Shown here piece after piece: positions 4,064-14,036 of a DNA stretch of 35,274 nt. The position numbers and the translations under genes were made by a program. The first letter of the stretch is position 1, and the number at the start of each line of letters is the position of its first letter. The notes beneath the pieces are model-generated. The model was not told the origin of the DNA. It worked only from the letters and a program-made list of their open reading frames with translations, and searched no databases. This DNA comes from an uncultured Ruminococcus sp. (lineage in GTDB: Bacteria; Bacillota; Clostridia; Oscillospirales; CAG-272). The DNA lies in NCBI GenBank assembly GCA_902793915.1, contig CADBFJ010000005.1, forward strand, positions 1 through 35,274. Direction: 5' to 3'.

Positions 4064-4648
4064 ATGGCAGAGAGAGAACAAACCTATCGTGTCCTCATCG
4101 TCTCGGCATCCGAGGCATTTGCAAAAGAACTCTCCGGCCTTCTTCCCCTCCCCACCTTCTCGCCGATCCAAACGGTGCCTGCAATCAGCCTTGCAAAACG
4201 GGAACTCTCCGAGCGGGATTTTGATTTTGTCATCATCAACTCTCCGCTCCGCGACGATCCGGGTACGCACTTTGCAATTGACGCCGCCGATGCCTCCGGC
4301 ACGGTTGTCCTCTTCCTTGCACGTACCGAACAGTACGACGAGGCCTATGACACGCTCGCCGGTCACGGGGTGTTCCTGCTGCAAAAGCCGATCTCCCGCT
4401 CGCTCTTCTCGGTTGCGGCCGATTGGCTGGTCAGCGCCCGGGAGGGACTGCGCAAAACCCAGAAAAAGACCATGTCCATCGAGGAAAAGATGAACGAAAT
4501 TCGCCTTGTCAACCGTGCCAAATGGCTGCTCATCAGCGAGCTCAAAATGACCGAGTCCGACGCCCACCGCTACATCGAAAAACAAGCCATGGATCGCTGC
4601 GTCCCCAAAAAGCAGGTTGCGGAAGAGATTATCAAGTTGTATAGTTAA
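4064..4648 (+). CDS. ANTAR-domain RNA-binding regulator with a receiver-like N-terminus
   Basis: The C-terminal segment EEKMNEIRLVNRAKWLLISELKMTESDAHRYIEKQAMDRCVPKKQVAEEI is ANTAR-like. The N-terminal receiver-like fold reads FDFVIIN where the phospho-acceptor Asp is expected. SD GAAAGGAGGG. Confidence 0.75.
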   Translation: MAEREQTYRVLIVSASEAFAKELSGLLPLPTFSPIQTVPAISLAKRELSERDFDFVIINSPLRDDPGTHFAIDAADASGTVVLFLARTEQYDEAYDTLAGHGVFLLQKPISRSLFSVAADWLVSAREGLRKTQKKTMSIEEKMNEIRLVNRAKWLLISELKMTESDAHRYIEKQAMDRCVPKKQVAEEIIKLYS

Positions 4649-4667
4649 AAAAGCACCCCGATCGGGG

Positions 4668-4711
4668 CAAAACAAAAGAAACGGCTATTCTATCAAAATA
4701 GTCGTTTCTTT
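4668..4711. repeat. R1-A: conserved terminator-like hairpin (GAAACGGCTATT / AATAGTCGTTTC) with an A-run before it and a T-run after it; copy 1 of 3
   Basis: The same ~44-nt sequence caaaacaaaagaaacggctattctatcaaaatagtcgtttcttt also occurs at 8793-8839 and 11521-11566. It lies directly after the ANTAR gene stop. Confidence 0.85.
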
Positions 4712-4766
4712 TTGTGTTGCGTGGGAGATATTGATAGAATCCACGCGAGGGGGGTAAGAGGTTACC
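4712..4766. repeat. R2-A: 55-nt conserved element, copy 1 of 2
   Basis: ttgtgttgcgtgggagatattgatagaatccacgcgaggggggtaagaggttacc aligns with 9048-9103 with about 6 differences. It contains the small hairpins CGTGG..CCACG and GGGGTAAG..CTTACCCC. Confidence 0.8.
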
Positions 4767-4797
4767 TTACCCCTCCGCTCTCAAAAGAAACAATGCC

Positions 4798-4813
4798 GTC
4801 CCAAATTTGGGAC
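4798..4813. promoter_or_regulatory. O1: perfect 16-bp palindrome GTCCCAAATTTGGGAC (candidate operator)
   Basis: Read directly from the sequence. It sits 12 nt upstream of the extended -10 TGtTATACT (4822-4830), and related dyads occur at 5690-5705 and 8451-8466. Confidence 0.7.
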
Positions 4814-4821
4814 ATCGGTTT

Positions 4822-4830
4822 TGTTATACT
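4822..4830 (+). promoter_or_regulatory. extended -10 element (TGtTATACT) for the 4884-5677 operon
   Basis: TG at 4822-4823 and TATACT at 4825-4830. No good -35 is present; the -35 region is occupied by palindrome O1. Confidence 0.45.
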
Positions 4831-4883
4831 CCTTTTGCAAGGCGGTGATGAGTGCCGCAAAATAAAGCAAAAGGAGAACAAAA

Positions 4884-5138
4884 ATGGACACCAAAAGTAT
4901 TTTCAACCAGATGGAGCAGGTTCGCCGGGAGATGGCGACGATCGACCGAAACATGGAGACCGAGAAGCGGTCGCTTGATGGTTACGAGCGGCAGATTCAG
5001 GCAATTCAAAGGAGCGCCGAGCCGCACCGTCGCCGCATTTCCGAACTGGAACGCAAAAAGAGAGATCTGCAACGAAAGTTGGACACCCTCGGCCGCGATT
5101 ATCGCCGCGTATTGGAGTCGGAGAAAAAACGCAGATGA
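4884..5138 (+). CDS. small highly charged coiled-coil-like protein (84 aa), unknown function
   Basis: SD AAAGGAGAA lies 5 nt before the ATG. The composition is heptad-rich and Arg/Glu/Lys-rich, and the stop overlaps the next start (ATGA at 5135-5138). Confidence 0.6.
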   Translation: MDTKSIFNQMEQVRREMATIDRNMETEKRSLDGYERQIQAIQRSAEPHRRRISELERKKRDLQRKLDTLGRDYRRVLESEKKRR

Positions 5139-5677
5139 GCACATTTCCGATGTTAGAAGCGGCATTGGGCGGCGGATTTTGCCACGGTTCTCTCTTGTTG
5201 GTGGCGAGCAGGCCGGGCGTTGGGAAAAGTACATTATTGCGGCAGATCGCAGACGATTCCAACGGCATTTATCTCTGCAACGAACTCGACGCCGCCGGTG
5301 TGGAAAATGTGGCAAGGAGTGCGCACGGCAGGATTCTTTGTTTGGATTTTGACACCGCCGCACAAAGCATCACGGGAGAAACTCTAAAGCGGCTTGCGCA
5401 AAAATACGAAATCCCCATTCTGGTAGCGACAGGTGTATCCCGGAATTGCGAAGGGCGAGAAGATAAGCGCCCACGCCTTGCGGATCTGGATCAAAATCTG
5501 GTCGCCGCAGCCGACGTGGTTCTCGTGCTCTATCGGGAATCCTATTATCATTGCGGCATTTCCATAGAGCCGAACGACGACGAATTCATCCTTCGCAAAA
5601 ACGCACATGGGGAGATCTGCACCATTCCTGCCACCCTGCATCTCCCGGAACGTCTTTGGTCGGAACGGAAAAATTAG
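5135..5677 (+). CDS. truncated DnaB C-terminal-like (RecA-fold) P-loop protein, 180 aa
   Basis: GGGFCHGSLLLVASRPGVGKSTLL (Walker A in DnaB context) and LKRLAQKYEIPILVATGVSRNCEGREDKRPRLADLDQNLVAAADVVLVLYRESYY (DnaB H3/H4-like). It lacks the DnaB N-terminal domain and part of the core. Confidence 0.65.
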   Translation: MSTFPMLEAALGGGFCHGSLLLVASRPGVGKSTLLRQIADDSNGIYLCNELDAAGVENVARSAHGRILCLDFDTAAQSITGETLKRLAQKYEIPILVATGVSRNCEGREDKRPRLADLDQNLVAAADVVLVLYRESYYHCGISIEPNDDEFILRKNAHGEICTIPATLHLPERLWSERKN

Positions 5678-5679
5678 CC

Positions 5680-5708
5680 TTGCATTCCTGTCCCGAATAT
5701 GGTACAAT
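5680..5708 (+). promoter_or_regulatory. sigma-A-type promoter TTGCAT-17-TACAAT (with TGg extension) overlapped by dyad O2, GTCCCGAATATGGTAC (5690-5705)
   Basis: -35 at 5680-5685 and -10 at 5703-5708. O2 matches O1 at 13/16 positions, and its last 3 nt are the first 3 nt of the -10. Confidence 0.65.
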
Positions 5709-5739
5709 AGGATCAACCGGAATGAGAAAGGATGATCCT

Positions 5740-6729
5740 ATGGATACTCTGGAACCGAAAAAGTTAGCGCTCTTGCGGGTTTTGCAAATTCTCTGGAAGG
5801 AGAGCGACGCCGACCATCCGCTCCACCAAGGACAGATCGCATCGCTTTTGGAGCGAGAATACGGTATCGTGGTCGAGCGCAAGGCGATCGGGCGCAACCT
5901 CTCGCTCTTGCAGGAGGCAGGGTTTGAGATTGAAAACAACGGAGGCGGGTTTTATCTGAATTCCCGCCTTTTTGAGGATTCCGAGCTTCAACTTTTGATC
6001 GACGGCGTGCTGGCAAGTCGGCACATCTCGCTCCCGCACTCAAAGGAATTGATCGGCAAGCTCTGCCGGCTCTCCAATCGCTATTTTCCTCGCCACGTCT
6101 CGAACATTCATTCGGTCGGCGAGTGGAACAAGACCGAAAACAAAACGCTTTTCTATCACATTGAGCTTGTGGACGAGGCGATCGAAAGCGGGAAAATGGT
6201 GGAGTACGACTACAACAAATACGGTGTTGACAAGAAACTCCACAAAAGCTCCTTTCAGCGCATCAGCCCCTACCAGTTGATCTTACACAACCAGCGCTAT
6301 TATCTCATGGGGTACAGCTCCTATTGGAAACACATGGTCTATCACCGCATGGATCGCATCACAAACATGGTCATCTCGGAGCAGCCGCTTGTCCCGATCC
6401 GTACGATCGAGGGCTATTCCGACGGGATCAATTACCGCAACCTTTCCACCGCCATGCCCTATATGTTCGCCGAGCCGCCCGAGCGCATCACGCTCCGCAC
6501 CGGCGAGGGCATGATGGATCAACTTGTGGACTGGTTCGGCAAGGAGGTCATGGTGCAAAAGATCGAGGACGGCACCATCGAGGTCAGCCTCCACGCCGCA
6601 CCGACTGCCATGCTCTATTGGGCGCTCCAATACGCCGACGCCGTGGAAATTCTCAAGCCGCAGGGGTTAAGGGAGCGGATTTGCAAGGTGCTGGACGAGG
6701 CAAAGGGAAAATATCAACAAGGAAAGTGA
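5740..6729 (+). CDS. HTH-WYL-WCX family transcriptional regulator (BrxR/CapW/PafBC-like architecture)
   Basis: N-terminal wHTH (LALLRVLQILWKESDADHPLHQGQIASLL), WYL core (YQLILHNQRYYLMGYSSYWKHMVYHRMDRI) and a C-terminal extension. ATG 5740 has SD GAAAGGA. The ORF-track start at 5551 and ATG 5722 lie upstream of or too close to the predicted promoter. Confidence 0.75.
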   Translation: MDTLEPKKLALLRVLQILWKESDADHPLHQGQIASLLEREYGIVVERKAIGRNLSLLQEAGFEIENNGGGFYLNSRLFEDSELQLLIDGVLASRHISLPHSKELIGKLCRLSNRYFPRHVSNIHSVGEWNKTENKTLFYHIELVDEAIESGKMVEYDYNKYGVDKKLHKSSFQRISPYQLILHNQRYYLMGYSSYWKHMVYHRMDRITNMVISEQPLVPIRTIEGYSDGINYRNLSTAMPYMFAEPPERITLRTGEGMMDQLVDWFGKEVMVQKIEDGTIEVSLHAAPTAMLYWALQYADAVEILKPQGLRERICKVLDEAKGKYQQGK

Positions 6730-6739
6730 CGGTAGCAAA

Positions 6740-7876
6740 ATGGAAAAATTAAAAAATTTGTTCGACTATGCCACAAGCGAACTTTCACAGGATGCTTTTC
6801 TCTGTTGGCTTCTTGAAAACTACAACTGCGAGAATCCAGTCGTCAGCAGAGCCGCACTTGATCTACTTGGCAAAATGACAGATTTGGATTGCTCCAAGCC
6901 CGGTGCTGTAACCGAGTTAAAGACCGATCGACAAGAGACCGAGAACTATCCCAATCCCGAACCCAAAAAGGACGAGAAGAAGTCCATCCACTGCGTTTTT
7001 GATATTATTGTAACCTTTCGGTATCGTGAAGAAAAACACATGCTTTTGATTGAAGATAAAATCTTTTCTTCGCCAAGCAATAAACAAATCGGTTTTTACC
7101 CGCAAGCATTCAAAAAATATGCAGAAAGACATTGCATTCCGAAGGATAATCTATACCGTGTAATTTATAAGACGGATATTGATCTTTATGGATACAAGGA
7201 AAAATCTCCGGGATGGAATAAGTCTTTTTATCTTGACAACATTTATTCTTTTTTTGAAAAGCAACAACACTCCGGTTGTCTGATTTTTGACCAGTACCGC
7301 AAGCACATTTGCGAATTGCATGAAAAGACAACCAAACTTCCTGACAAACCTATGGCGGAATGGAAAGACCTCATCCTTTTCAGAACCTATATTCAGCAAA
7401 AGATACTCCCATTCGTCAACTCCAATTATGGCGATGTTCTAGAAGCAAGTCCTTCCGGGTGGATTTCTTATTCTGCAATTTGGATCGAACGCAAAGACAA
7501 TGACAACATCACAAAAGATAAAAAAGTAAGGTTTTCTCTTGAAATCAGTTTTTGGCGTCACACTCCCTCGGCGCGTATCACCTTGCGCGGCGGAAAAATG
7601 GAGGTAAAGAATAAGGATCTTTTTGCTAGTAAAAAGTTCAGGGAGTGGGCAGAAAGCAACTTGATTCGGGGAAGCAAAGGGTTTAGAGTTTATAGGCGCG
7701 ATTATTGTGTTGGACACAACAAAAAAGAATTTCTTTCTTATGAAAGCGGCATTGAAAAAGTAACGCAGGATTGCAAAGAATTGATTGAAGATTTTGCCAA
7801 AATGTGCCGTGAGATGAATAAAGAACTCCCCCAGCACCCCGACTGGCGGATTTTCTTGACAGAACGAGAAAAGTAA
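6740..7876 (+). CDS. PD-(D/E)xK nuclease-superfamily protein (PDDEXK_4-like N-terminus) with an unknown ~230-aa C-terminal region
   Basis: SELSQDAFLCWLLEN... then FDIIV...HMLLIEDKIFS...KQIGFY fits the E..D..(D/E)xK layout. It starts 11 nt after the WYL stop. The gene is AT-rich (19/60 GC at 7141-7200), unlike the WYL gene. Confidence 0.6.
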   Translation: MEKLKNLFDYATSELSQDAFLCWLLENYNCENPVVSRAALDLLGKMTDLDCSKPGAVTELKTDRQETENYPNPEPKKDEKKSIHCVFDIIVTFRYREEKHMLLIEDKIFSSPSNKQIGFYPQAFKKYAERHCIPKDNLYRVIYKTDIDLYGYKEKSPGWNKSFYLDNIYSFFEKQQHSGCLIFDQYRKHICELHEKTTKLPDKPMAEWKDLILFRTYIQQKILPFVNSNYGDVLEASPSGWISYSAIWIERKDNDNITKDKKVRFSLEISFWRHTPSARITLRGGKMEVKNKDLFASKKFREWAESNLIRGSKGFRVYRRDYCVGHNKKEFLSYESGIEKVTQDCKELIEDFAKMCREMNKELPQHPDWRIFLTEREK

Positions 7877-7906
7877 AGCAAAACCCCTCAATAAAACCGG
7901 GCTTTC

Positions 7907-7926
7907 GGGCGGTGTGTTTACCGCCC
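7907..7926. terminator. hairpin GGGCGGT-gtgttt-ACCGCCC between convergent genes
   Basis: A 7-bp GC stem lies between the nuclease-like gene (+) and the 146-aa gene (-). The U-tracts are weak. Confidence 0.4.
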
Positions 7927-7951
7927 TGTTCCAAGAGCTTTTATGCTTTTT

Positions 7952-8392
7952 TCAATCAAAAAGCACGTCCATCTTTTGTTGAAGAAAAGGAATACATTCA
8001 TTTACTGTTTTGGGTAAGTGTTCCCTCTGCATATGAATTTCGGCAAATGGTTTTTCGTCAGAATCATGCGGGATGCATACACGGATCATTTCCGAATATC
8101 CAAGCCCTTTTAATTGATCAACGGTTTCAAAGAACTCTTGATTTTGATAGATCATGTCCCATAAGATCAAGGTTTTAAGCACCGAAAGATCCGGATTGGG
8201 ATGGTATATGTCTTGAAAAGCAAAATCCGCAAAGCCGGAACAAATTGCATTGCATAAATCTTCGGCATAATACCCGAACTTTTCAATTCTCTCAATAATT
8301 TTACCCTCCACTTTTCCTTCCGTTTTTTTGACAAGCGCAATGATTTCATTGTTCCGATTTATTTCAAGCGAAATCAACATCAAAAAATCCAT
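7952..8392 (-). CDS. hypothetical protein, 146 aa, no recognisable motif
   Basis: Clean AT-rich ORF convergent with the nuclease-like gene. It has its own promoter carrying dyad O3. Confidence 0.55.
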   Translation of the reverse strand: MDFLMLISLEINRNNEIIALVKKTEGKVEGKIIERIEKFGYYAEDLCNAICSGFADFAFQDIYHPNPDLSVLKTLILWDMIYQNQEFFETVDQLKGLGYSEMIRVCIPHDSDEKPFAEIHMQREHLPKTVNECIPFLQQKMDVLFD

Positions 8393-8447
8393 CCTTTCTA
8401 TTTACCCTGTCCGGTTTCAATCTTGCTATAGAAATGATAGCATAGTA

Positions 8448-8476
8448 ATTGTACCAAATAGGGGACGAATTCCTAA
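8448..8476 (-). promoter_or_regulatory. promoter TTAGGA-17-TACAAT (TGg extension) overlapped by dyad O3 (minus-strand GTCCCCTATTTGGTAC, 8451-8466)
   Basis: -10 at 8448-8453 and -35 at 8471-8476 (plus-strand coordinates). O3 has the same geometry relative to the -10 as O2. Confidence 0.6.
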
Positions 8477-8638
8477 TTTAATAGATATAAATACTCGTGT
8501 GCCTTGCCCAATCCACCCCTTTGAATTTGCCAATTTCGCACACGGGCACCCGCGCCGCTGTCCGTGAGCGAAAGCCCCGGAGATCATGCCGCCCCCTGGG
8601 GTAACTCATGGTTTACTCCTCTACCCCGCCGCTTCGAC

Positions 8639-8674
8639 CCATAATCCAACGATTACCCATAATCCAACGATTAC
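8639..8674. repeat. tandem 18-nt direct repeat ccataatccaacgattac x2
   Basis: Two exact adjacent copies; a single copy occurs at 11384-11401. It marks the left edge of the ~400-nt duplicated module. Confidence 0.85.
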
Positions 8675-8703
8675 TGTTTGAAATAAGCCAAAAAAGCAAA
8701 AAA

Positions 8704-8742
8704 GCAACCGTTACAGACCTGTTTTTGATCTGTATCGGTTGC
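8704..8742. terminator. bidirectional terminator-like hairpin (GCAACCGTTACAGA / TCTGTATCGGTTGC) flanked by A- and T-runs
   Basis: 14-bp stem with one mismatch. The homologous hairpin at 11430-11470 has a different outer stem sequence (GGCAGCC/GGCTGCC) but keeps the pairing. Confidence 0.6.
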
Positions 8743-8792
8743 CTTTTATTTGTTCAAAAACTCGAAAAAGCCCTTATTTCAAGCACTTTTTG

Positions 8793-8839
8793 GGCAAAAC
8801 AAAAGAAACGGCTATTCTATCAAAATAGTCGTTTCTTTA
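8793..8839. repeat. R1-B: second copy of the R1 hairpin
   Basis: Near-identical to 4668-4711 and 11521-11566. Confidence 0.85.
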
Positions 8840-9017
8840 TGGCACGGCATGAGGGATTCAGAACCAAACTGCGGCGAAAGGGGGGCTTTTCGTGCTCGTT
8901 CCTCTCTTCCTTGTTTTCGCCTCCGTGCACCGTTTTCTCGTCGGCTGAACGCCTCCGTTTTGCTTGCGGCAAAAACCGAAAACGGCAGGGGGTTGTTCAT
9001 TGCCCCCATCTCGCGCC
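8840..9017. repeat. X1: ~178-nt unit beginning with a degenerate copy of the tRNA-Arg 3' end (T-loop to CCA), then a 33-nt variable segment and a 78-nt block identical to X2
   Basis: 8840-8866 tggcacggcatgagggattcagaacc resembles the tRNA-Arg 3' end at 11776-11802. 8840-8880 matches 11567-11607 at 39/41. 8914-8991 is identical to 11641-11718. 8881-8913 is unrelated to 11608-11640 but has the same length. Confidence 0.8.
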
Positions 9018-9022
9018 AAAAA

Positions 9023-9044
9023 GGCGGATGCTGTTGCATCCGCC
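9023..9044 (-). terminator. intrinsic terminator on the minus strand (GGCGGATGC-aaca-GCATCCGCC followed by TTTTT)
   Basis: 9-bp GC-rich stem with a T5 tract on the minus strand (9018-9022). Confidence 0.65.
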
Positions 9045-9047
9045 TCG

Positions 9048-9103
9048 TTGTGTTGCGTAGTAGATATTGATAGAATCCACGAGAGGGGGGATAAGTGGTT
9101 ACC
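9048..9103. repeat. R2-B: second copy of the 55-nt R2 element
   Basis: ttgtgttgcgtagtagatattgatagaatccacgagaggggggataagtggttacc aligns with 4712-4766. Confidence 0.8.
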
Positions 9104-9196
9104 CTCTAACACGGAAACTACTGTATATCTGCCAGTTGAATCTCTCGCCCAGTTGAGAATACCTATCAAAAACGAATAGTCATCTCTATTTCCTCT

Positions 9197-9226
9197 ATTA
9201 TAACATTCTTTATGTATCTGCACCAA
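9197..9226 (-). promoter_or_regulatory. candidate minus-strand promoter TTGGTG-18-TATAAT with a TGt extension, downstream of the SIR2-like gene
   Basis: ATTATAACA at 9197-9205 is TGTTATAAT on the minus strand. It forms an inverted repeat with TGTTATAAT at 9232-9240 on the plus strand. Confidence 0.45.
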
Positions 9227-9270
9227 ACGATTGTTATAATGCGCCCCCCGGGCATAATTCTTGCATCCAG

Positions 9271-10218
9271 TTATAGATATGGATTTATTGGAAATGTTTT
9301 TTCTTCCTTCGCCCATTTTTCACTTTGAATCAACGGGTTAACCAATAATGAAATATCATTGAAATCCATACTGTTTTTAAAGCCTTTACTCCCATCTAAA
9401 AATCTACAATTCATCAATCTATCAAATGTTGCCTCACAACTTCGCCGCGGGTATCTCCCAAGTGTGGTGTCAAAAAAATCATTATGATAGGAATAATGAT
9501 GCGTATAAATAAACTCTTGCCATGACTCAAAGACCTCTTCTTCTGGACGTAAATCTACTATCTCGATTTCTTCCATTGTTCTATCCGTAACATTCCCCCA
9601 TGCATTTTTTAACATGGATACAGCTTCGACATCGCTTTTAGGTGCACTGTATCCAAAGATGGTTATCATATACGCTACTTCAAGTGCATTTTGTAATGCT
9701 TCCCATGATTTAGAAATGGCAGGATTTTTTTGATAATTCTTATTTTTTATTGGATATAGTAGCCCTATACCCTGTAGTGGTTCACCACATTTGCATTTAC
9801 CGCCGATATTACCAATGACATTATCTTTTTCACAATATCCTATTGCAACATTGCCATGAAGAAATGCAAGTGAGGTTAAACTCAAAATAAGAAAATCATA
9901 TACCGTCGGATTGTCGGGTATAGTATATTCCGATATATACTCATATATCTTCGTCTCAAGTTCCAATTTTGCTTTTTCATAAATACTACCGGGAGTACTT
10001 TTTTCTGAAATCTCCATATAGATATCTTCTAAATTATCCGAAGTAGTATCCAATGACAAAGACGAAATGATATTTTTTAGACCAAGTTTTTCTATAAACC
10101 CCTTCATTGCAGAAATCTTTTTCCCATTTTTATCACCGTTGGGTATTGCTGCACAACTCGCACCAGCACCAAGAATTACAACATGGGGGCGCCATTTCAT
10201 TTGTTCTTCATATGTCAT
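9271..10218 (-). CDS. compact SIR2/sirtuin-like NAD-binding protein (315 aa)
   Basis: VVILGAGASCAAIP (GAGxS...IP), AFLHGNV (catalytic-His-like HG) followed by a Cys cluster (C-x12-CKCGEPL), and ITIFGYSAPKSD (second Rossmann strand). AT-rich, and last gene of a 3-gene operon. Confidence 0.6.
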   Translation of the reverse strand: MTYEEQMKWRPHVVILGAGASCAAIPNGDKNGKKISAMKGFIEKLGLKNIISSLSLDTTSDNLEDIYMEISEKSTPGSIYEKAKLELETKIYEYISEYTIPDNPTVYDFLILSLTSLAFLHGNVAIGYCEKDNVIGNIGGKCKCGEPLQGIGLLYPIKNKNYQKNPAISKSWEALQNALEVAYMITIFGYSAPKSDVEAVSMLKNAWGNVTDRTMEEIEIVDLRPEEEVFESWQEFIYTHHYSYHNDFFDTTLGRYPRRSCEATFDRLMNCRFLDGSKGFKNSMDFNDISLLVNPLIQSEKWAKEEKTFPINPYL

Positions 10219-10223
10219 TCCTA

Positions 10224-10415
10224 TTATTTACCGCCAATCTCACAGCATATATCTTCAAAATCTCCATCTGGAATTTCTCGACCGATTTCATTTGACAAAA
10301 TGGTTGCCAGCATATTGGTCTTCACTCTTTTATTCGGGTACAAATCATTTTGAAGTAAGCGAAAGAAATTCTCGTCGCTTAAGCATTTTTGAAATAAAGT
10401 ATTTAAATCAATCAT
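10224..10415 (-). CDS. small protein (63 aa) paralogous to the N-terminal domain of the 283-aa protein
   Basis: MIDLNTLFQKCLSDENFFRLLQNDLYPNKRVKTNMLATILSNEIGREI aligns with MIDLKTLFQKHPDCISNENRFRALMNELYPNERAKTNVLATILSTGIGREI. ATG 10415 has SD GGTGAG; the ORF-track start at 10439 overlaps the upstream stop. Confidence 0.55.
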   Translation of the reverse strand: MIDLNTLFQKCLSDENFFRLLQNDLYPNKRVKTNMLATILSNEIGREIPDGDFEDICCEIGGK

Positions 10416-10435
10416 ACGCCCAATCTCACCACATA

Positions 10436-11287
10436 TCAATCCAAGCTAATCCACATCGCTGGGCGGACTGCCTTGGAATAGTCAACATTGTAGCCATAGT
10501 ACTCGACAGAGCCATCACGGTTGACATAAGCAGCGTTGCTAGATTGCATACCGGGTGACCGTAGCCACCAACGTGCCTCATTAACAAACCAACCCTCACA
10601 TTTCCTCGCTTCATCAGAACTAAAATATTTGTTTGCCTCTAGTATGCTCAATAGAAATACTTTATCGTTTGTTTTTTTACCAGGAGAAATCCTATAAGAC
10701 GGATTCTTATCAGCAGTAACGGTTGTACTTTGGATCTTTCTCTGTTCCTCTGCGCTGAATGCACAATTAAGAAAATCGTTGTTCAGCCACTTGCGCAATG
10801 AACAAGCTTCCCATGTTGTGGAAACAGAATACCCCGGCGGATCATGATACGGCTTGATAGTCAGCAAAATTTTGCTAATGATAAATGCTTTCCTATCCTT
10901 TTCGTCCAATATGAGCCATTCGATTGGAGCAGGTTCACCATACGCAGACTGTGGATAGCGCCCGAAGGTGATAATACCTCCATGTGCTACTGTTAAGTTG
11001 TTAGAATCTGCAAAACCGTCAGCAGTCGGCCACAGTTGCAAGCATTTCTCACACAAATCGCTTGCAAAGCCATATTCATTTTCCAGCCACTTCGCAAAGT
11101 TGCTTAAAGATAAATAGTCGCTTTTCCCGTTTTGAATCTCTCGACCGATTCCAGTCGACAAAATGGTCGCCAGCACATTTGTCTTCGCTCTTTCATTCGG
11201 GTACAATTCGTTCATCAGCGCGCGAAAGCGATTCTCGTTGCTTATGCAGTCAGGATGCTTTTGAAATAAGGTTTTTAAATCAATCAT
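10436..11287 (-). CDS. two-domain protein: unknown ~85-aa N-terminal domain plus a DUF6273-like C-terminal domain
   Basis: The C-terminal motifs RKWLNNDFLNCAFSAEEQ, DKVFLLSILEA, WWLRSPG and VRPAMWI match my memory of the DUF6273 family. There is no signal peptide. Confidence 0.55.
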   Translation of the reverse strand: MIDLKTLFQKHPDCISNENRFRALMNELYPNERAKTNVLATILSTGIGREIQNGKSDYLSLSNFAKWLENEYGFASDLCEKCLQLWPTADGFADSNNLTVAHGGIITFGRYPQSAYGEPAPIEWLILDEKDRKAFIISKILLTIKPYHDPPGYSVSTTWEACSLRKWLNNDFLNCAFSAEEQRKIQSTTVTADKNPSYRISPGKKTNDKVFLLSILEANKYFSSDEARKCEGWFVNEARWWLRSPGMQSSNAAYVNRDGSVEYYGYNVDYSKAVRPAMWISLD

Positions 11288-11325
11288 ATTGCTTTGCCCT
11301 CACAAAATCCGTTTCAATTTAGAAT

Positions 11326-11354
11326 ATTATATCACAAAGCCTTCTTAATTTCTA
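11326..11354 (-). promoter_or_regulatory. promoter for the 283-aa/63-aa/SIR2 operon: extended -10 TGaTATAAT with a weak -35 TAGAAA
   Basis: ATTATATCA at 11326-11334 on the plus strand. The -35 (11349-11354) lies inside one arm of the inverted repeat at 11350-11378. Confidence 0.55.
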
Positions 11355-11378
11355 CACTTTCAGCGAAAAAGTGTAGAA
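11350..11378. promoter_or_regulatory. inverted repeat TTCTACACTTT-N7-AAAGTGTAGAA (candidate operator)
   Basis: Perfect 11-bp arms overlapping the -35 of the operon promoter, with no flanking U-tract. Confidence 0.5.
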
Positions 11379-11383
11379 ACGCC

Positions 11384-11401
11384 CCATAATCCAACGATTA
11401 C
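11384..11401. repeat. single copy of the 18-nt repeat ccataatccaacgattac; left edge of duplicated module copy 2
   Basis: Identical to the units at 8639-8674. The homology continues rightward through 11742. Confidence 0.8.
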
Positions 11402-11429
11402 TCTTTGAAACGAGCCGAAAAACAAAAAA

Positions 11430-11470
11430 GGCAGCCTTTACAGACCTGTTTTTGATCTGCATCGGCTGCC
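11430..11470. terminator. bidirectional terminator-like hairpin (GGCAGCCTTTACAGA / TCTGCATCGGCTGCC)
   Basis: Homolog of 8704-8742 with stem-preserving substitutions. Confidence 0.55.
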
Positions 11471-11520
11471 TTATATTGATTCAAAAACTCGAAAAAGCCC
11501 TTATTTCAAGCACTTCCGGG

Positions 11521-11566
11521 GTAAAACAAAAGAAACGGCTATTCTATCAAAATAGTCGTTTCTTTT
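11521..11566. repeat. R1-C: third copy of the R1 hairpin
   Basis: Near-identical to R1-A and R1-B. Confidence 0.85.
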
Positions 11567-11742
11567 TGGCGCGGCATGAGGGATTCAGAACCCAACTGCG
11601 GCGAAAGTGATTGTATCCTACGCGCGCCGTCACTTTTCTCTTTTCGCCTCCGTGCACCGTTTTCTCGTCGGCTGAACGCCTCCGTTTTGCTTGCGGCAAA
11701 AACCGAAAACGGCAGGGGCTTCTCGTCCTCTCGTACGGCACC
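11567..11742. repeat. X2: second copy of the tRNA-Arg-3'-end-derived unit
   Basis: 11567-11593 tggcgcggcatgagggattcagaaccc matches the tRNA 3' end at 26 of 27 positions (one extra base). It carries the identical 78-nt block and a divergent 33-nt segment. Confidence 0.8.
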
Positions 11743-11748
11743 AAAAAA

Positions 11749-11770
11749 CGGGATGGTAAAAACCATCCCG
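11749..11770. terminator. terminator of tRNA-Arg (CGGGATGG-loop-CCATCCCG, with an A6 run on one side and a T6 run on the other)
   Basis: 8-bp stem immediately 3' of the tRNA on the minus strand, followed there by TTTTTT. Confidence 0.7.
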
Positions 11771-11775
11771 TTTTT

Positions 11776-11852
11776 TGGCGCGGCATGAGGGATTCGAACC
11801 CCCGACCTACTGGTTCGTAGCCAGGCACTCTATCCGGCTGAGCTAATGCCGC
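11776..11852 (-). tRNA. tRNA-Arg (anticodon ACG), CCA encoded
   Basis: The minus strand reads GCGGCAT TA GCTC AGCCGGATA GAGT G CCTGG CTACGAA CCAGT AGGTC GGGGG TTCGAAT CCCTC ATGCCGC G CCA. It is 77 nt and close to E. coli tRNA-Arg(ACG). Confidence 0.92.
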
Positions 11853-13349: not shown

Positions 13350-14036
13350 TTATTTATGTAGATCCGAGCGAAGAAATTTGAATGCCCGCTCAACCGCGTC
13401 TTTGGAATCGTACCAGGGTTCTTCCTCGTAGCGATAATCAAACTTTTTGCAGAACCAACTGACGTCGTTTTGCAGTTTTTTAAGATACGCGTCCTCGATT
13501 TTAGCAAGGGTGTCGGCAAATTCAAAGAGGTCGCGCTTGCCGAGCCGTTTTTGCCCATAAGCAAGGAGCTTTTTATAGTGCGGCAGGCAGAAAAAGGGCT
13601 GTTTTTTAAGGCTCTCCCGAAACTCCTCTTCCTTTGCCCAAAGGTAAACGGCGGTGTCGGTCATATGCTCAAAATTTTCCTCGACCCGGCGGCAAACATA
13701 GCAGGTGGATTCGAGCTTTTCAATGCGTTTTTTGGGGCGGTTTCCCTGCGCGTCGCTTTTGAGATCTTTTTCCAGTTCGGCAAGGTGGCTCTCGAGTGTG
13801 AGCGCCATGCCCAGGCGGTTTTTGCGGACGAACATCCTATCGTAATGCGTGCGGCAAAAGCCCTCTTCATTGGTTTTGATGCGAATATCGGGTTCCATCA
13901 TCGAGGCGCCGAGAATGAGGTCAAGTTCGTCCTCTTCAAGTTTTTGATAAAGGCGGCAGAGCGGACAGCCGAGCGCGTGATCGGCGGCACAGGCATCAAA
14001 CGCCTCGTGCACCGGAATGGTAAAGTTCATACCCAT
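13350..14036 (-). CDS. conserved Cys-containing hypothetical protein (DUF6062-like, from memory)
   Basis: CPLC...C..H and C.VC motifs. ATG 14036 has SD GGAGGG; the ORF-track start at 14081 is an upstream alternative. Confidence 0.5.
   Translation of the reverse strand: MGMNFTIPVHEAFDACAADHALGCPLCRLYQKLEEDELDLILGASMMEPDIRIKTNEEGFCRTHYDRMFVRKNRLGMALTLESHLAELEKDLKSDAQGNRPKKRIEKLESTCYVCRRVEENFEHMTDTAVYLWAKEEEFRESLKKQPFFCLPHYKKLLAYGQKRLGKRDLFEFADTLAKIEDAYLKKLQNDVSWFCKKFDYRYEEEPWYDSKDAVERAFKFLRSDLHK

Follow-up and report, generated by a model that had tools for sequence, protein, structure and literature searches.

The interval between an ANTAR regulator gene and a tRNA-Arg gene in an uncultured rumen Clostridia bacterium holds two unrelated sets of cargo genes, both bordered by copies of the same boundary sequences (Table 1; the window, that is, the whole stretch of DNA analysed, is 35,274 nt long). 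On the left, the ANTAR gene is the core flank and closes a glutamate-synthase/glnA cluster; on the right, a VanY gene lies beyond the tRNA-Arg gene. Within the interval, the R1 terminator hairpin and an 18-nt repeat each occur three times, whereas R2, a ~400-nt module and a copy of the tRNA-Arg 3' end each occur twice. The initial annotation had placed all of these elements exactly or to within a few bases, none of them being expected by chance, and had correctly counted five genes in cargo 1 and three in cargo 2.

Table 1. Features of the ANTAR/tRNA-Arg interval (positions in the window)
Feature	Position	Strand	Basis or remark
ANTAR regulator gene	4064..4648	+	Pfam ANTAR 1.9e-15; synteny with L001-L004
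R1-A, bidirectional terminator hairpin with A-run and T-run	4663..4714		stem 4674-4689 / 4697-4712
R2-A	4712..4766	+	begins at R1 T-run; extended -10-like TGATAGAAT, then short hairpin
Cargo-1 own promoter/operator region	4793..4883	+	palindrome GTCCCAAATTTGGGAC at 4798-4813; TGTTATACT
Cargo-1 operon, four genes	4884..7876	+	Pfam, PADLOC, NCBIfam
84-aa coiled-coil protein and 180-aa mini DnaB_C-like ATPase, cargo 1	within 4884..7876	+	Pfam, PADLOC, NCBIfam
WYL/WCX regulator, cargo 1	5740-6729	+	Pfam, PADLOC, NCBIfam
PD-(D/E)XK_4 nuclease, cargo 1	6740-7876	+	Pfam, PADLOC, NCBIfam
Cargo-1 fifth gene, 146 aa, AT-rich	7952..8392	-	ORF call
18-nt unit CCCATAATCCAACGATTA(C), two tandem copies	8638..8674		start of module B
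Terminator-like hairpin, module B	8704..8742		alignment
R1-B	8790..8841		repeat copy
tRNA-Arg 3'-end fragment B	8836..8866	-	CCA end to T-stem; 1 extra T-loop base
X1, structured block	8867..9002	+	includes 78-nt stretch 8914-8991 identical to X2
hp2 terminator hairpin	9022..9045		occupies position of tRNA terminator in module C
R2-B, second R2 copy	9048..9103	+	abuts hp2; tandem junction
Cargo 2, three genes	9271..11287	-	promoter at 11354-11326
18-nt unit, single copy	11383..11401		start of module C
Terminator-like hairpin, module C	11430..11470		alignment
R1-C	11517..11568		repeat copy
tRNA-Arg 3'-end fragment C	11563..11593	-	same extra T-loop base as fragment B
X2	11594..11729	+	alignment/folds
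tRNA-Arg bidirectional terminator	11730..11789		inverted repeat; folds
Intact tRNA-Arg(ACG)	11776..11852	-	perfect sigma-70-type promoter at 11902-11874

Identity among the 52-nt copies of R1 is 92-98%; they share a 37-nt core, identical at 4675, 8802 and 11529, for which shuffled sequences gave 0 expected matches. The R2 copies at 4712 and 9048 show 2 mismatches in 34 (51/56 aligned positions agree), and the 18/19-nt unit CCCATAATCCAACGATTAC starts at 8638, 8656 and 11383. A third R2 copy, R2-D, adjoins pyrG in L001, a contig of the same arrangement that is near-identical to the window contig. Every junction falls at a terminator T-run (R1-A to R2-A, hp2 to R2-B, terminator to tRNA and, in L001, terminator to R2-D), and these runs offer 5-7 nt of microhomology. 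The left arm of the tRNA-Arg terminator continues into a copy of the tRNA acceptor end that is inverted and imperfect.

The two modules (8639-9046 and 11384-11775) align over their entire length, as had been proposed, although their overall identity is 79% and not roughly 85%. The alignment is a mosaic: the first 225 nt are 91% identical, the R1 core and the 78-nt block (11641-11718 in module C) are 100% identical, and the remainder is at about 88-91%, apart from a stretch of ~33 nt without any similarity. Loop and hairpin sequences are unrelated, and the hairpin stems differ by compensatory changes (GCAACCG/CGGTTGC versus GCAGCC/GGCTGC). The repetition of the tRNA 3' end within the island was borne out by fragments B and C, both of which carry one extra A in the T-loop; in the fragment of the sister species (contig L004), that position holds an extra T. 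This shared extra base implies an old insertion and makes fragments B and C duplicates of each other. The variable parts of X in L004 are closer to X1 than to X2, which, together with the mosaic similarity, fits allelic divergence plus gene conversion.

The first three genes of cargo 1 recur in contig L093 beside a different nuclease, and the cargo-1 core is found in two other genomic contexts, at 85-93% nucleotide identity, where R1, R2, X and the 18-nt repeat are all missing; this counts for the boundaries being flanks of the locus and not cassette ends. The cargo-1 promoter region is conserved with contig L094 from window position 4795 on, and partly with L003; family searches with the fifth gene gave no match. 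In cargo 2, the first gene encodes a 315-aa protein (344 aa in other strains) with distant DNA matches on Stenotrophomonas and Enterococcus plasmids, and the others are a 71-aa ORF and a gene for a DUF6273 protein (10436-11287). The cargo had been described as AT-rich, which holds for cargo 2 and the right half of cargo 1 (G+C 0.39-0.40, against 0.53-0.56 in the flanks) but not for the left half of cargo 1 (0.54). The two sets, each equipped with promoters and terminators of its own but not self-mobile, were acquired horizontally and are probably anti-phage genes; we infer a role in defence.

Integrase, transposase and recombinase domains are absent from the scanned ORFs of the island and from the major ORFs between 11.9 and 35.1 kb, in agreement with the initial reading. 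To the left of the ANTAR gene, precomputed Pfam matches on L001 comprise glutamate-synthase and glutamine-synthetase genes only. No recombinase is listed in the precomputed gene tables for contigs of the same species, and the scan of L004 covered four genes. The ~400-nt module had no match among viral contigs, and R2 had none beyond one chance match in JGI metagenomes and viral contigs.

Comparison with other strains supported the view that this stretch is accessory, its content varying between strains and species. Different cargo was indeed found in the same slot: L003 carries other genes after R2, and in L085 a different gene directly follows R1 and the tRNA, the tRNA being joined directly to R1'. 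Contig L098 terminates at the tRNA 3' end. In the sister species, the order is ANTAR-R1a-R2', an Exo_endo_phos gene, a DUF4147/MOFRL (glycerate-kinase-family) gene, and R1c-fragment-X-terminator-tRNA-Arg-VanY; both slot genes are housekeeping-like, and the 18-nt/hairpin arm is missing. R1 follows the ANTAR gene in L003 as well as in L004, with an equivalent of R2-A in the same place. Because the ANTAR-R1-R2 junction and the R1-fragment-X-terminator-tRNA block each occur as a single copy around other genes in L004, they are properties of the locus, that is, native flanks of a variable slot. Neither an empty site nor a single-allele strain was found among the assemblies compared, so the donor and recipient states are reconstructed; since the locus turned up in no more than about five samples and a single sister species, the slot variation is poorly sampled.

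These observations do not support the proposal of trans-mobilised cassettes with R1, R2 and X as their ends. Besides the native flanks of L004 and the cargo-1 core that lacks boundaries elsewhere, the derived 1-nt insertion marks the two tRNA fragments as mutual duplicates and not as two independent integration footprints. The cargo breakpoint in L003 lies inside the cargo-1 promoter rather than at R2. Convergent genes turn their 3' end towards R2-B, which therefore cannot be the cargo-2 promoter and is a retained flank. Moreover, the two-unit array is fixed across four samples, namely three others and one from which L085 was also obtained. The suggested PCR for an X-R2 circle junction would be uninformative, because this junction is already chromosomal at 9046/9048.

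How might the two units have arisen? We favour the reading that two alleles of a single tRNA-side hotspot were stacked in tandem, the left junction arising through a terminator T-run and the fossil fragment and X dating from an earlier integration aimed at the tRNA; we give it about an even chance. The interval is a variable slot with native flanks. On the left these are the ANTAR gene, the R1 terminator and R2; on the right, an R1 terminator and the fossil fragment are followed by X, a terminator hairpin and then the intact tRNA. The fragment and X would be the remnant of an integration by a tRNA-targeting element that presumably predates the split from the sister species. Each unit would represent one allele, running from R2 through cargo, 18-nt repeat and hairpin, R1, fragment and X to a terminator; repetition of the complete flank set in the same order is as expected of tandem alleles. 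Most likely, the DNA of cargo 2 came from a related strain and recombined homologously on the tRNA/VanY side, the other side being joined illegitimately through the short T-run that follows each terminator hairpin (homology-facilitated illegitimate recombination), with the hp2/R2-B junction as the outcome; a microhomology-mediated tandem duplication followed by cargo replacement would be equivalent. Gene conversion may afterwards have homogenised R1 and the 78-nt block of X. Homology-facilitated illegitimate recombination is known to build arrays (PMC5361080, PMC3240628), and some defence hotspots show no detectable mobile elements (PMC10121019, PMC10250203).

Besides the missing single-allele strains and empty sites and the sparse sampling, two observations weigh against such stacking of alleles. 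Three different hairpins (R1-A, hp2 and the terminator beside R2-D) are joined to exactly the same left edge of R2, a precision that usually exceeds that of illegitimate recombination unless the T-run always guides the joining; and L001 and L085, from one sample, resemble the two reciprocal products of an exchange at a T-run, which would be the signature of a conservative site-specific recombinase. We considered a trans-acting system of an undescribed kind, with a recombinase elsewhere, for example encoded by the host, that inserts and excises integrase-less units (from R2 to a terminator hairpin) at the junction of the terminator T-run (overlap TTTTTTG) with the tRNA-Arg 3' end or R2. All four expected junction types are present: R1 to R2 at 4711/4712 and in L003 and L004; hairpin to tRNA at 11775/11776; hairpin to R2 at 9046/9048, with terminator to R2-D in L001; and R1 to the tRNA 3' end in L085, and at R1-B and R1-C with their fragments. 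Neither L001 nor L085, which belong to one assembly, breaks at its junction, suggesting both reciprocal products in one genome. However, the argument depends on two contigs whose strains of origin may differ, the 'inserted' DNA beside R2-D holds the housekeeping genes pyrG and asnB, no common half-site motif can be discerned around the T-runs, there is no known candidate for the recombinase, R2 is all but missing from the metagenomic and viral sequences, and slippage at a hairpin plus T-run can yield the same joints. We consider this system improbable. Less credible still, to the point of being negligible, is a mis-joining of two strains' versions of the locus during assembly. Metagenome assemblies do break or mis-join at repeats, and several short contigs stop within R1 or at the tRNA, but assemblies of three further samples, built with different assemblers, reproduce the order at 99.7-100% identity, contigs span every internal junction (L092, 4403-8991; L088, 8905-11727; L002, the whole island and both flanks), and modules B and C are distinguishable (79-91% identity).

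A decayed tandem accretion resembling the CIMEs of Streptococcus thermophilus, which are related to ICESt1/ICESt3 and accrete at the 3' end of their target gene (PMC5704250), is a stronger candidate, though in our judgement still unlikely. Elements carrying a tRNA-Arg 3' end and a terminator would have integrated successively at the T-loop/3' end of tRNA-Arg and then lost their integrases, and units could still move in cis, or in trans by the integrase of a related element; the module would be a hybrid attP-like junction with a P arm (18-nt arm-type repeats, hairpin, R1), a core (tRNA fragment) and a P' arm (X). As in CIMEs, integrase-less units with accessory cargo lie in tandem at a tRNA 3' end, with direct repeats of that end between them. 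The three direct copies of the tRNA 3' end span the CCA end through the T-stem, as is classical for a T-loop crossover; two of them bracket 8867-11562; the distance of the 18-nt direct repeats from the core, ~170-200 nt, resembles that of arm-type sites; and polymorphism begins exactly at the tRNA 3' end in L085 and L098. The concept and its steps are described (PMC5704250), as are partial tRNAs between stacked elements (bioRxiv 10.1101/2020.12.28.424599). Unlike in CIMEs, no co-resident ICE/IME or integrase was seen in the scanned ORFs and same-species gene tables, both fragments share a derived insertion in the presumed crossover region that the live tRNA lacks, the left edge of cargo 1 has no att copy (neither fragment nor X), and the repeated block of ~400 nt is partly native to the locus in the sister species. 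The rightmost 'element' would be just 180 nt, yet conserved in that species, where the 18-nt/hairpin arm is missing, and viral contigs do not match the module.

The locus has parallels in other systems. Tycheposon islands of Prochlorococcus contain stacked elements and scattered partial tRNAs beside a tRNA (bioRxiv 10.1101/2020.12.28.424599) and share with this locus a variable tRNA-side island, internal partial tRNAs, degenerate remnants and newer insertions displacing older ones from the tRNA; some genomes there carry intact integrase-bearing elements with demonstrated excision, whereas no contig here does. Core defence hotspots without detectable mobile-element genes, such as the cDHS of P. 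aeruginosa (PMC10250203) and hotspot 37 of E. coli (PMC10121019), likewise have conserved flanks, strain-variable content, cargo rich in nucleases and regulators, and often no mobility genes, but a tandem repeat of the whole flank set, as seen here, is not among their described features, and the defence role of the cargo is presumptive. In the T6SS orphan immunity arrays of V. cholerae (PMC5361080, which also cites Rhs orphan arrays; mechanism in PMC3240628), one end of the new allele pairs by homology and the other joins illegitimately, which displaces the old allele and leaves a tandem with a repeated boundary. Those arrays repeat coding 5' or 3' regions, whereas the repeats here are non-coding (terminators, tRNA fragment, X) and the mechanism is a proposal. 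Integron cassette arrays and CALINs, which are clusters of attC sites lacking an integrase, are also recombinase-less arrays of units that each end in a hairpin; we rejected this identity because the units here are multi-gene, with their own promoters and in both orientations, and because on inspection their hairpins are plain A-run/stem/T-run terminators without attC architecture. The ANTAR/tRNA-Arg locus thus looks like an ordinary, recombination-prone tRNA-side hotspot with old integration scars, and not like a novel type of mobile cassette.

How might two sets of accessory genes have come to lie side by side, each bounded by the same repeats, between the ANTAR gene and tRNA-Arg? We consider the simplest account to be that two alleles of a single tRNA-side locus were placed in tandem, a reading to which we give roughly even odds. 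The repeats listed in the initial annotation (three copies of the R1 terminator hairpin, two of the R2 block, three of an 18-nt unit, CCCATAATCCAACGATTAC, two modules of ~400 nt and copies of the tRNA end) proved correct, and all of them fall between the ANTAR gene and tRNA-Arg; R1, R2, the 18-nt unit and block X, which follows the tRNA fragment in each module, have no copy outside the island in the 35-kb window. The 37-nt core of R1 occurs three times free of mismatches, where shuffled sequences gave an expectation of 0. The left edge of R2 is exactly the same base after three hairpins, namely R1-A, hp2 at the right end of module B, and the tRNA terminator, the last in the near-identical contig L001. 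The two modules align from end to end at 79% identity overall, and this identity is strongly mosaic: it is 91% in the first 225 nt and 100% in R1 and a 78-nt block, and it falls to zero similarity in a stretch of ~33 nt and in the right-end hairpins. R2 was rejected as a degenerate tRNA end and as a canonical sigma-70 promoter, having an extended -10-like motif only. Module B is separated from the AT-rich 146-aa gene by a G+C-rich, apparently non-coding spacer of 245 nt, for which no similarity was found among the DNA fetched.

Features of the island and their positions in the window
Feature	Position	Strand	Description
ANTAR gene	ends 4648		
R1-A core	4675-4711		37 nt, terminator hairpin
R2-A	4712		block at T-run
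Cargo 1	4884-8392		five genes
Cargo 1 cassette	4793-7876		trio and nuclease
Cargo 1 gene			coiled-coil protein, 84 aa
Cargo 1 gene			ATPase, 180 aa; retains only the Walker-A region and C-terminal end of DnaB
Cargo 1 gene			WYL/WCX regulator
Cargo 1 gene			PD-(D/E)XK_4 nuclease
Cargo 1 gene		opposite	unannotated protein, 146 aa, AT-rich
Spacer	8393-8637		
18-nt unit	8638, 8656, 11383		three copies
Module B	8639-9046		
R1-B core	8802-8838		37 nt
tRNA fragment B	8836-8866		
X1	8867-9002		78-nt identical block, 8914-8991
Between fragments B and C	8867-11562		
hp2	9022-9045		terminator hairpin
R2-B	9048		block at T-run
Cargo 2	9271-11287	-	three genes
Cargo 2 gene 1	9271-10218		315 aa (344 aa elsewhere); weak DNA-level relatives on Stenotrophomonas and Enterococcus plasmids
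Cargo 2 ORF	10224-10439		71 aa
Cargo 2 gene			DUF6273 protein
Module C	11384-11775		
R1-C core	11529-11565		37 nt
tRNA fragment C	11563-11593		
X2	11594-11729		78-nt identical block, 11641-11718
Between fragment C and intact tRNA	11594-11775		
tRNA-Arg terminator	11730-11789		
tRNA-Arg(ACG)	11776-11852	-	intact; ARAGORN, Rfam
tRNA-Arg promoter	11902-11874		perfect TTGACA-17-TATAAT; promoter scan

The organism is rare in public data. Exact-protein look-ups recovered it from four further samples, and five contigs (L001, L002, L088, L089 and L092), 99.7-100% identical to the window, jointly span every internal junction; an assembly artefact was ruled out by these independent assemblies. Among species genomes, the nearest is that of L004, an uncultured Clostridia MAG from goat rumen, whose ANTAR protein is 96% identical and whose DNA is 90% identical to the window in the left flank and 78% in the right; the glnA-ANTAR and tRNA-Arg-VanY flanks are common to the window, L002 and L004. 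In L004, each boundary is present as a single copy and in the same order: the ANTAR gene, an R1-type hairpin and an R2-type block right after the T-run, and, on the right side, an R1-type hairpin, a tRNA 3' fragment, X, a differently sequenced terminator, tRNA-Arg and VanY. The slot between them holds genes of host-like composition encoding Exo_endo_phos and DUF4147/MOFRL (glycerate-kinase-family) proteins, and the 18-nt unit and the hairpin after it are missing. Because these boundaries are single-copy in L004, we infer that R1|R2 and R1-fragment-X-terminator-tRNA are the native flanks of a species-variable slot. Among the GTDB species genomes, L004 was the one syntenic ANTAR relative; the regions downstream of the next-best ANTAR relatives (55-70% identical) were unrelated in the 18 inspected.

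Different cargo in the same slot, for which the initial annotation had proposed to look, was indeed found across strains and species. In addition to L004, the variant contig L003 has ANTAR-R1-R2 and part of the cargo-1 promoter as in the window and diverges at window position 4841, that is, in the promoter and not in R2. In the variant contig L085, an R1-type hairpin comes immediately after VanY and tRNA-Arg, and then a different DnaB_C-like gene, with no terminator-X-fragment insert; the contig ends 45 codons into this cargo gene, and no informative relative of the 45-residue protein start was found. A k87 contig, L098, ends exactly at the tRNA 3' end, which is what a branch point of the assembly graph would produce, and an empty ANTAR-R1-tRNA site was found in none of the contigs. 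The X|R2 joint, put forward in the initial annotation as a circular junction, is already part of the chromosome and is therefore no marker of circles. One sample, ERZ27280413, contains both the L085 junction (8290-8490) and a junction in L001 (17560-17750) at which a third copy of R2 (R2-D) and then pyrG-asnB come after the X2 terminator. The native context of R2-D could not be traced through pyrG, since this protein is too conserved and its best match, L095, belongs to another uncultured organism and lacks R2. In L095 (9376-11989), an ANTAR gene lies immediately upstream of pyrG and adjoins a type III glutamine synthetase gene, and a regulatory link of ANTAR with pyrimidine or nitrogen genes is possible there.

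The copies of the tRNA-Arg end record an event of a different kind. Each comprises the last ~30 nt of the gene, with a match that starts at the CCA end, takes in the acceptor strand and T-loop and stops within the T-stem, and no such fragment stands to the left of cargo 1. A fragment of this extent would be expected of tRNA-targeting integrases that cross over in the T-loop. A single nucleotide in the presumed crossover loop sets these att-like repeats apart from the live tRNA; an extra A stands at the same position of the T-loop in fragments B and C, where L004 has an extra T. Independent integrations would each displace the intact 3' end, and the shared derived insertion therefore argues for the origin of B and C as copies of a single fragment. 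Judging from these sequences, the older fragment behind B and C appears to predate the split from L004, so that the integration that made it would be ancient. The ~180 nt from fragment to tRNA, comprising X and the terminator, would then be either a remnant of the integrated element or a block with a function of its own.

If two alleles were stacked, how were they joined? Each unit repeats the full set of flanks: R2, cargo, the 18-nt unit with its hairpin, R1, fragment, X and terminator hairpin. The identical boundary architecture ascribed to the two units in the initial annotation is best read as duplicated native hotspot flanks. R2-B cannot serve cargo 2, because the cargo-2 genes converge on it. 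We propose that the incoming cargo-2 allele would have been anchored by homology on the tRNA/VanY side, and that its other side would have been joined through the T-run found after every terminator hairpin, giving hp2|R2-B at 9046/9048. This route would be homology-facilitated illegitimate recombination, which has been proposed for other stacked arrays (PMC5361080; for the mechanism, PMC3240628). Alternatively, microhomology-mediated tandem duplication followed by the replacement of one cargo would have had the same outcome. Stacking of alleles would account for the identical unit architecture, the insertion that the fragments share, a divergence of allelic degree and the missing recombinase, and also for the variable parts, in which X1 is nearer to the X of L004 than X2 is; the perfectly identical tracts would be due to gene conversion. 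The three R1 cores are identical, as against ~91% identity in the surrounding module DNA, and the two R1 copies of L004 differ from each other by compensatory changes. That the cores are identical in the lineage of the window points to gene conversion or to selection acting on the terminator.

An accessory islet at a tRNA gene without an integrase, as described in the initial annotation, was confirmed. No recombinase, integrase or transposase domain was detected in the island ORFs or in the major ORFs scanned from 11.9 to 35.1 kb, no recombinase was listed in the precomputed gene tables of the same-species contigs, which cover the region left of ANTAR, and none was seen among the four genes examined in L004. 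The right flank is housekeeping (VanY, rRNA methylase, RF-1, galactokinase, PlsX and others), and the left flank, according to the precomputed gene table of L001, consists of glutamate synthase and glnA. The island therefore differs from tRNA-targeting integrative elements, in which the integrase lies within or next to the element, and from insertion sequences, MITEs and transposons, as it has neither a transposase nor multi-copy TIRs with short target duplications. In integron arrays and CALINs, attC sites (R''-L''...L'-R', with a GTTRRRY core) end single promoterless ORFs of the same orientation, whereas the island units are multi-gene, have their own promoters and use both strands, and their hairpins are intrinsic terminators by inspection and promoter/terminator scan. 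The locus corresponds to a variable core-flanked hotspot, with conserved flanks in the window, L002 and L004 and differing content in L003, L004 and L085.

Could the two units be successive integrations that have lost their machinery? A decayed, CIME-like tandem accretion (PMC5704250; compare the stacked elements with partial tRNAs in bioRxiv 10.1101/2020.12.28.424599) would fit the repeats of the tRNA end and the place of the 18-nt repeats, and the island, like a CIME, has no integrase, relaxase or transfer genes. However, no related autonomous ICE or IME of the same specificity was seen in the window, L004 or the same-species contigs, an integrase-bearing relative was not found, extra deletions would be required at the left edge and at the tRNA, and the shared fragment insertion would be left unexplained; we regard this accretion as unlikely, though deserving consideration. 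We hold it to be distinctly improbable that the units are integrase-less cassettes, running from R2 to a terminator hairpin, which a recombinase encoded elsewhere exchanges conservatively at the T-run beside the tRNA-Arg 3' end or R2. The four junction classes expected of such an exchange are all present, the constant first base of R2 would agree with it, and the junctions of L001 (X2-terminator|R2-D-pyrG, without the tRNA) and L085 (R1-type hairpin|tRNA-Arg), from one assembly, look reciprocal. Against it, L001 and L085 possibly represent different strains, the DNA adjoining R2-D is housekeeping (pyrG, asnB), and neither a recombinase nor a half-site motif is apparent. If it were true, the conserved and structured X, with its 5' side antisense to the 3' end of the tRNA, would belong to the recognition apparatus or act as a guide-like RNA. 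The suggestion in the initial annotation that the modules are cassette ends mobilised in trans was not supported, and we prefer to read the boundaries as duplicated hotspot flanks that carry an old integration scar. A viral origin was also rejected: IMG/VR scans for exact patterns (18-nt unit, R2, X core and fragment-X junction) and for the DUF6273 protein were empty. The JGI metagenomes gave no match to the X core, a weak negative because the clade seems absent from that collection, and one match to a degenerate R2 pattern, on an unrelated AT-rich contig, which we judged to be due to chance.

The G+C content is 0.53-0.56 in the flanks and drops to 0.39-0.40 in cargo 2 and over the right half of cargo 1. 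The first three genes of cargo 1, encoding the coiled-coil protein, the mini DnaB_C-like ATPase and the WYL/WCX regulator, form a trio with its own promoter and a palindrome, GTCCCAAATTTGGGAC. At 85% DNA identity, this trio recurs in L093 (9734-12572) between a cation ATPase and a STAS/sigma operon, where it is followed by a PvuRts1I_N+SRA nuclease in place of the PD-(D/E)XK_4 nuclease of the window; in L094 (9646-10545) it recurs at 93% DNA identity, after four large unannotated genes. R1, R2, X and the 18-nt unit are absent at both of these sites, which indicates that the cargo travels independently of the frame seen in the window. The two nucleases occupy equivalent positions, and of the known anti-phage systems in PADLOC only the WYL regulator was matched in the island. 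We take the trio for a candidate defence system whose nuclease effector may be swapped, and a defence role for cargo 1 is plausible. In cargo 2, the first gene has an in-frame deletion of 87 nt (~9871) relative to every other assembly of the locus. The 71-aa ORF repeats, at 80% identity, the 5' part of the adjacent DUF6273 gene (11127-11248) and represents a partial tandem duplication within cargo 2. The cargo-2 proteins had no family match that assigned a function, and the 344-aa, 146-aa and 71-aa proteins matched nothing in Pfam, NCBIfam, PHROG, PADLOC or PDB sequences. Searches of phage and plasmid records returned only tRNA matches and weak ones to the first cargo-2 gene; the one context inspected was uninformative.

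Block X, of ~135 nt, contains conserved stem halves that enclose the ~33-nt loop, which is completely different between the two window copies. The RNAalifold consensus of three copies (X1, X2 and that of L004 at 13865-13999), too few sequences for proof, predicts pairing between the tRNA fragment and an acceptor-end copy that is inverted and imperfect, as well as a stem, GGCGAAAG/CTTTTCGCC, around the hypervariable loop. Two compensatory pairs would support one helix (CGTTTTC/GAAAACG in the window versus GATTTTC/GAAAATC in L004), an inner helix would require four G-U pairs, possible on the plus strand only, and five compensatory pairs are predicted in the terminator hairpin. If co-transcribed, the tRNA fragment upstream of X would run antisense to the 3' end of tRNA-Arg. 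With the Rfam covariance models, only the tRNA scored between 4000 and 12600, nothing else reaching E<=1 except a chance miRNA model, and a covariance model of X recovered only its own three training copies when run on a further 1.18 Mb of fetched sequence, for the most part from related Clostridia. X was thus rejected as a generic dispersed repeat, and also as what is left of a second, decayed tRNA: the tRNA homology ends in the T-stem, and ARAGORN and Rfam were blank.

This locus is a natural example, from an uncultured rumen anaerobe, of how accessory and probably defensive gene sets accumulate at a tRNA-side hotspot by stacking and not by replacement, no mobility gene having been seen, and it illustrates that long repeated "boundary modules" can be mere duplicated flanks of a locus. 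The by-products of the analysis, namely a candidate defence module with an exchangeable nuclease and the structured X outside the known RNA families, are perhaps worth more than the architecture of the island. If the precise T-run junctions were made by an enzyme, they would point the way to a trans-acting recombination system in Clostridia.
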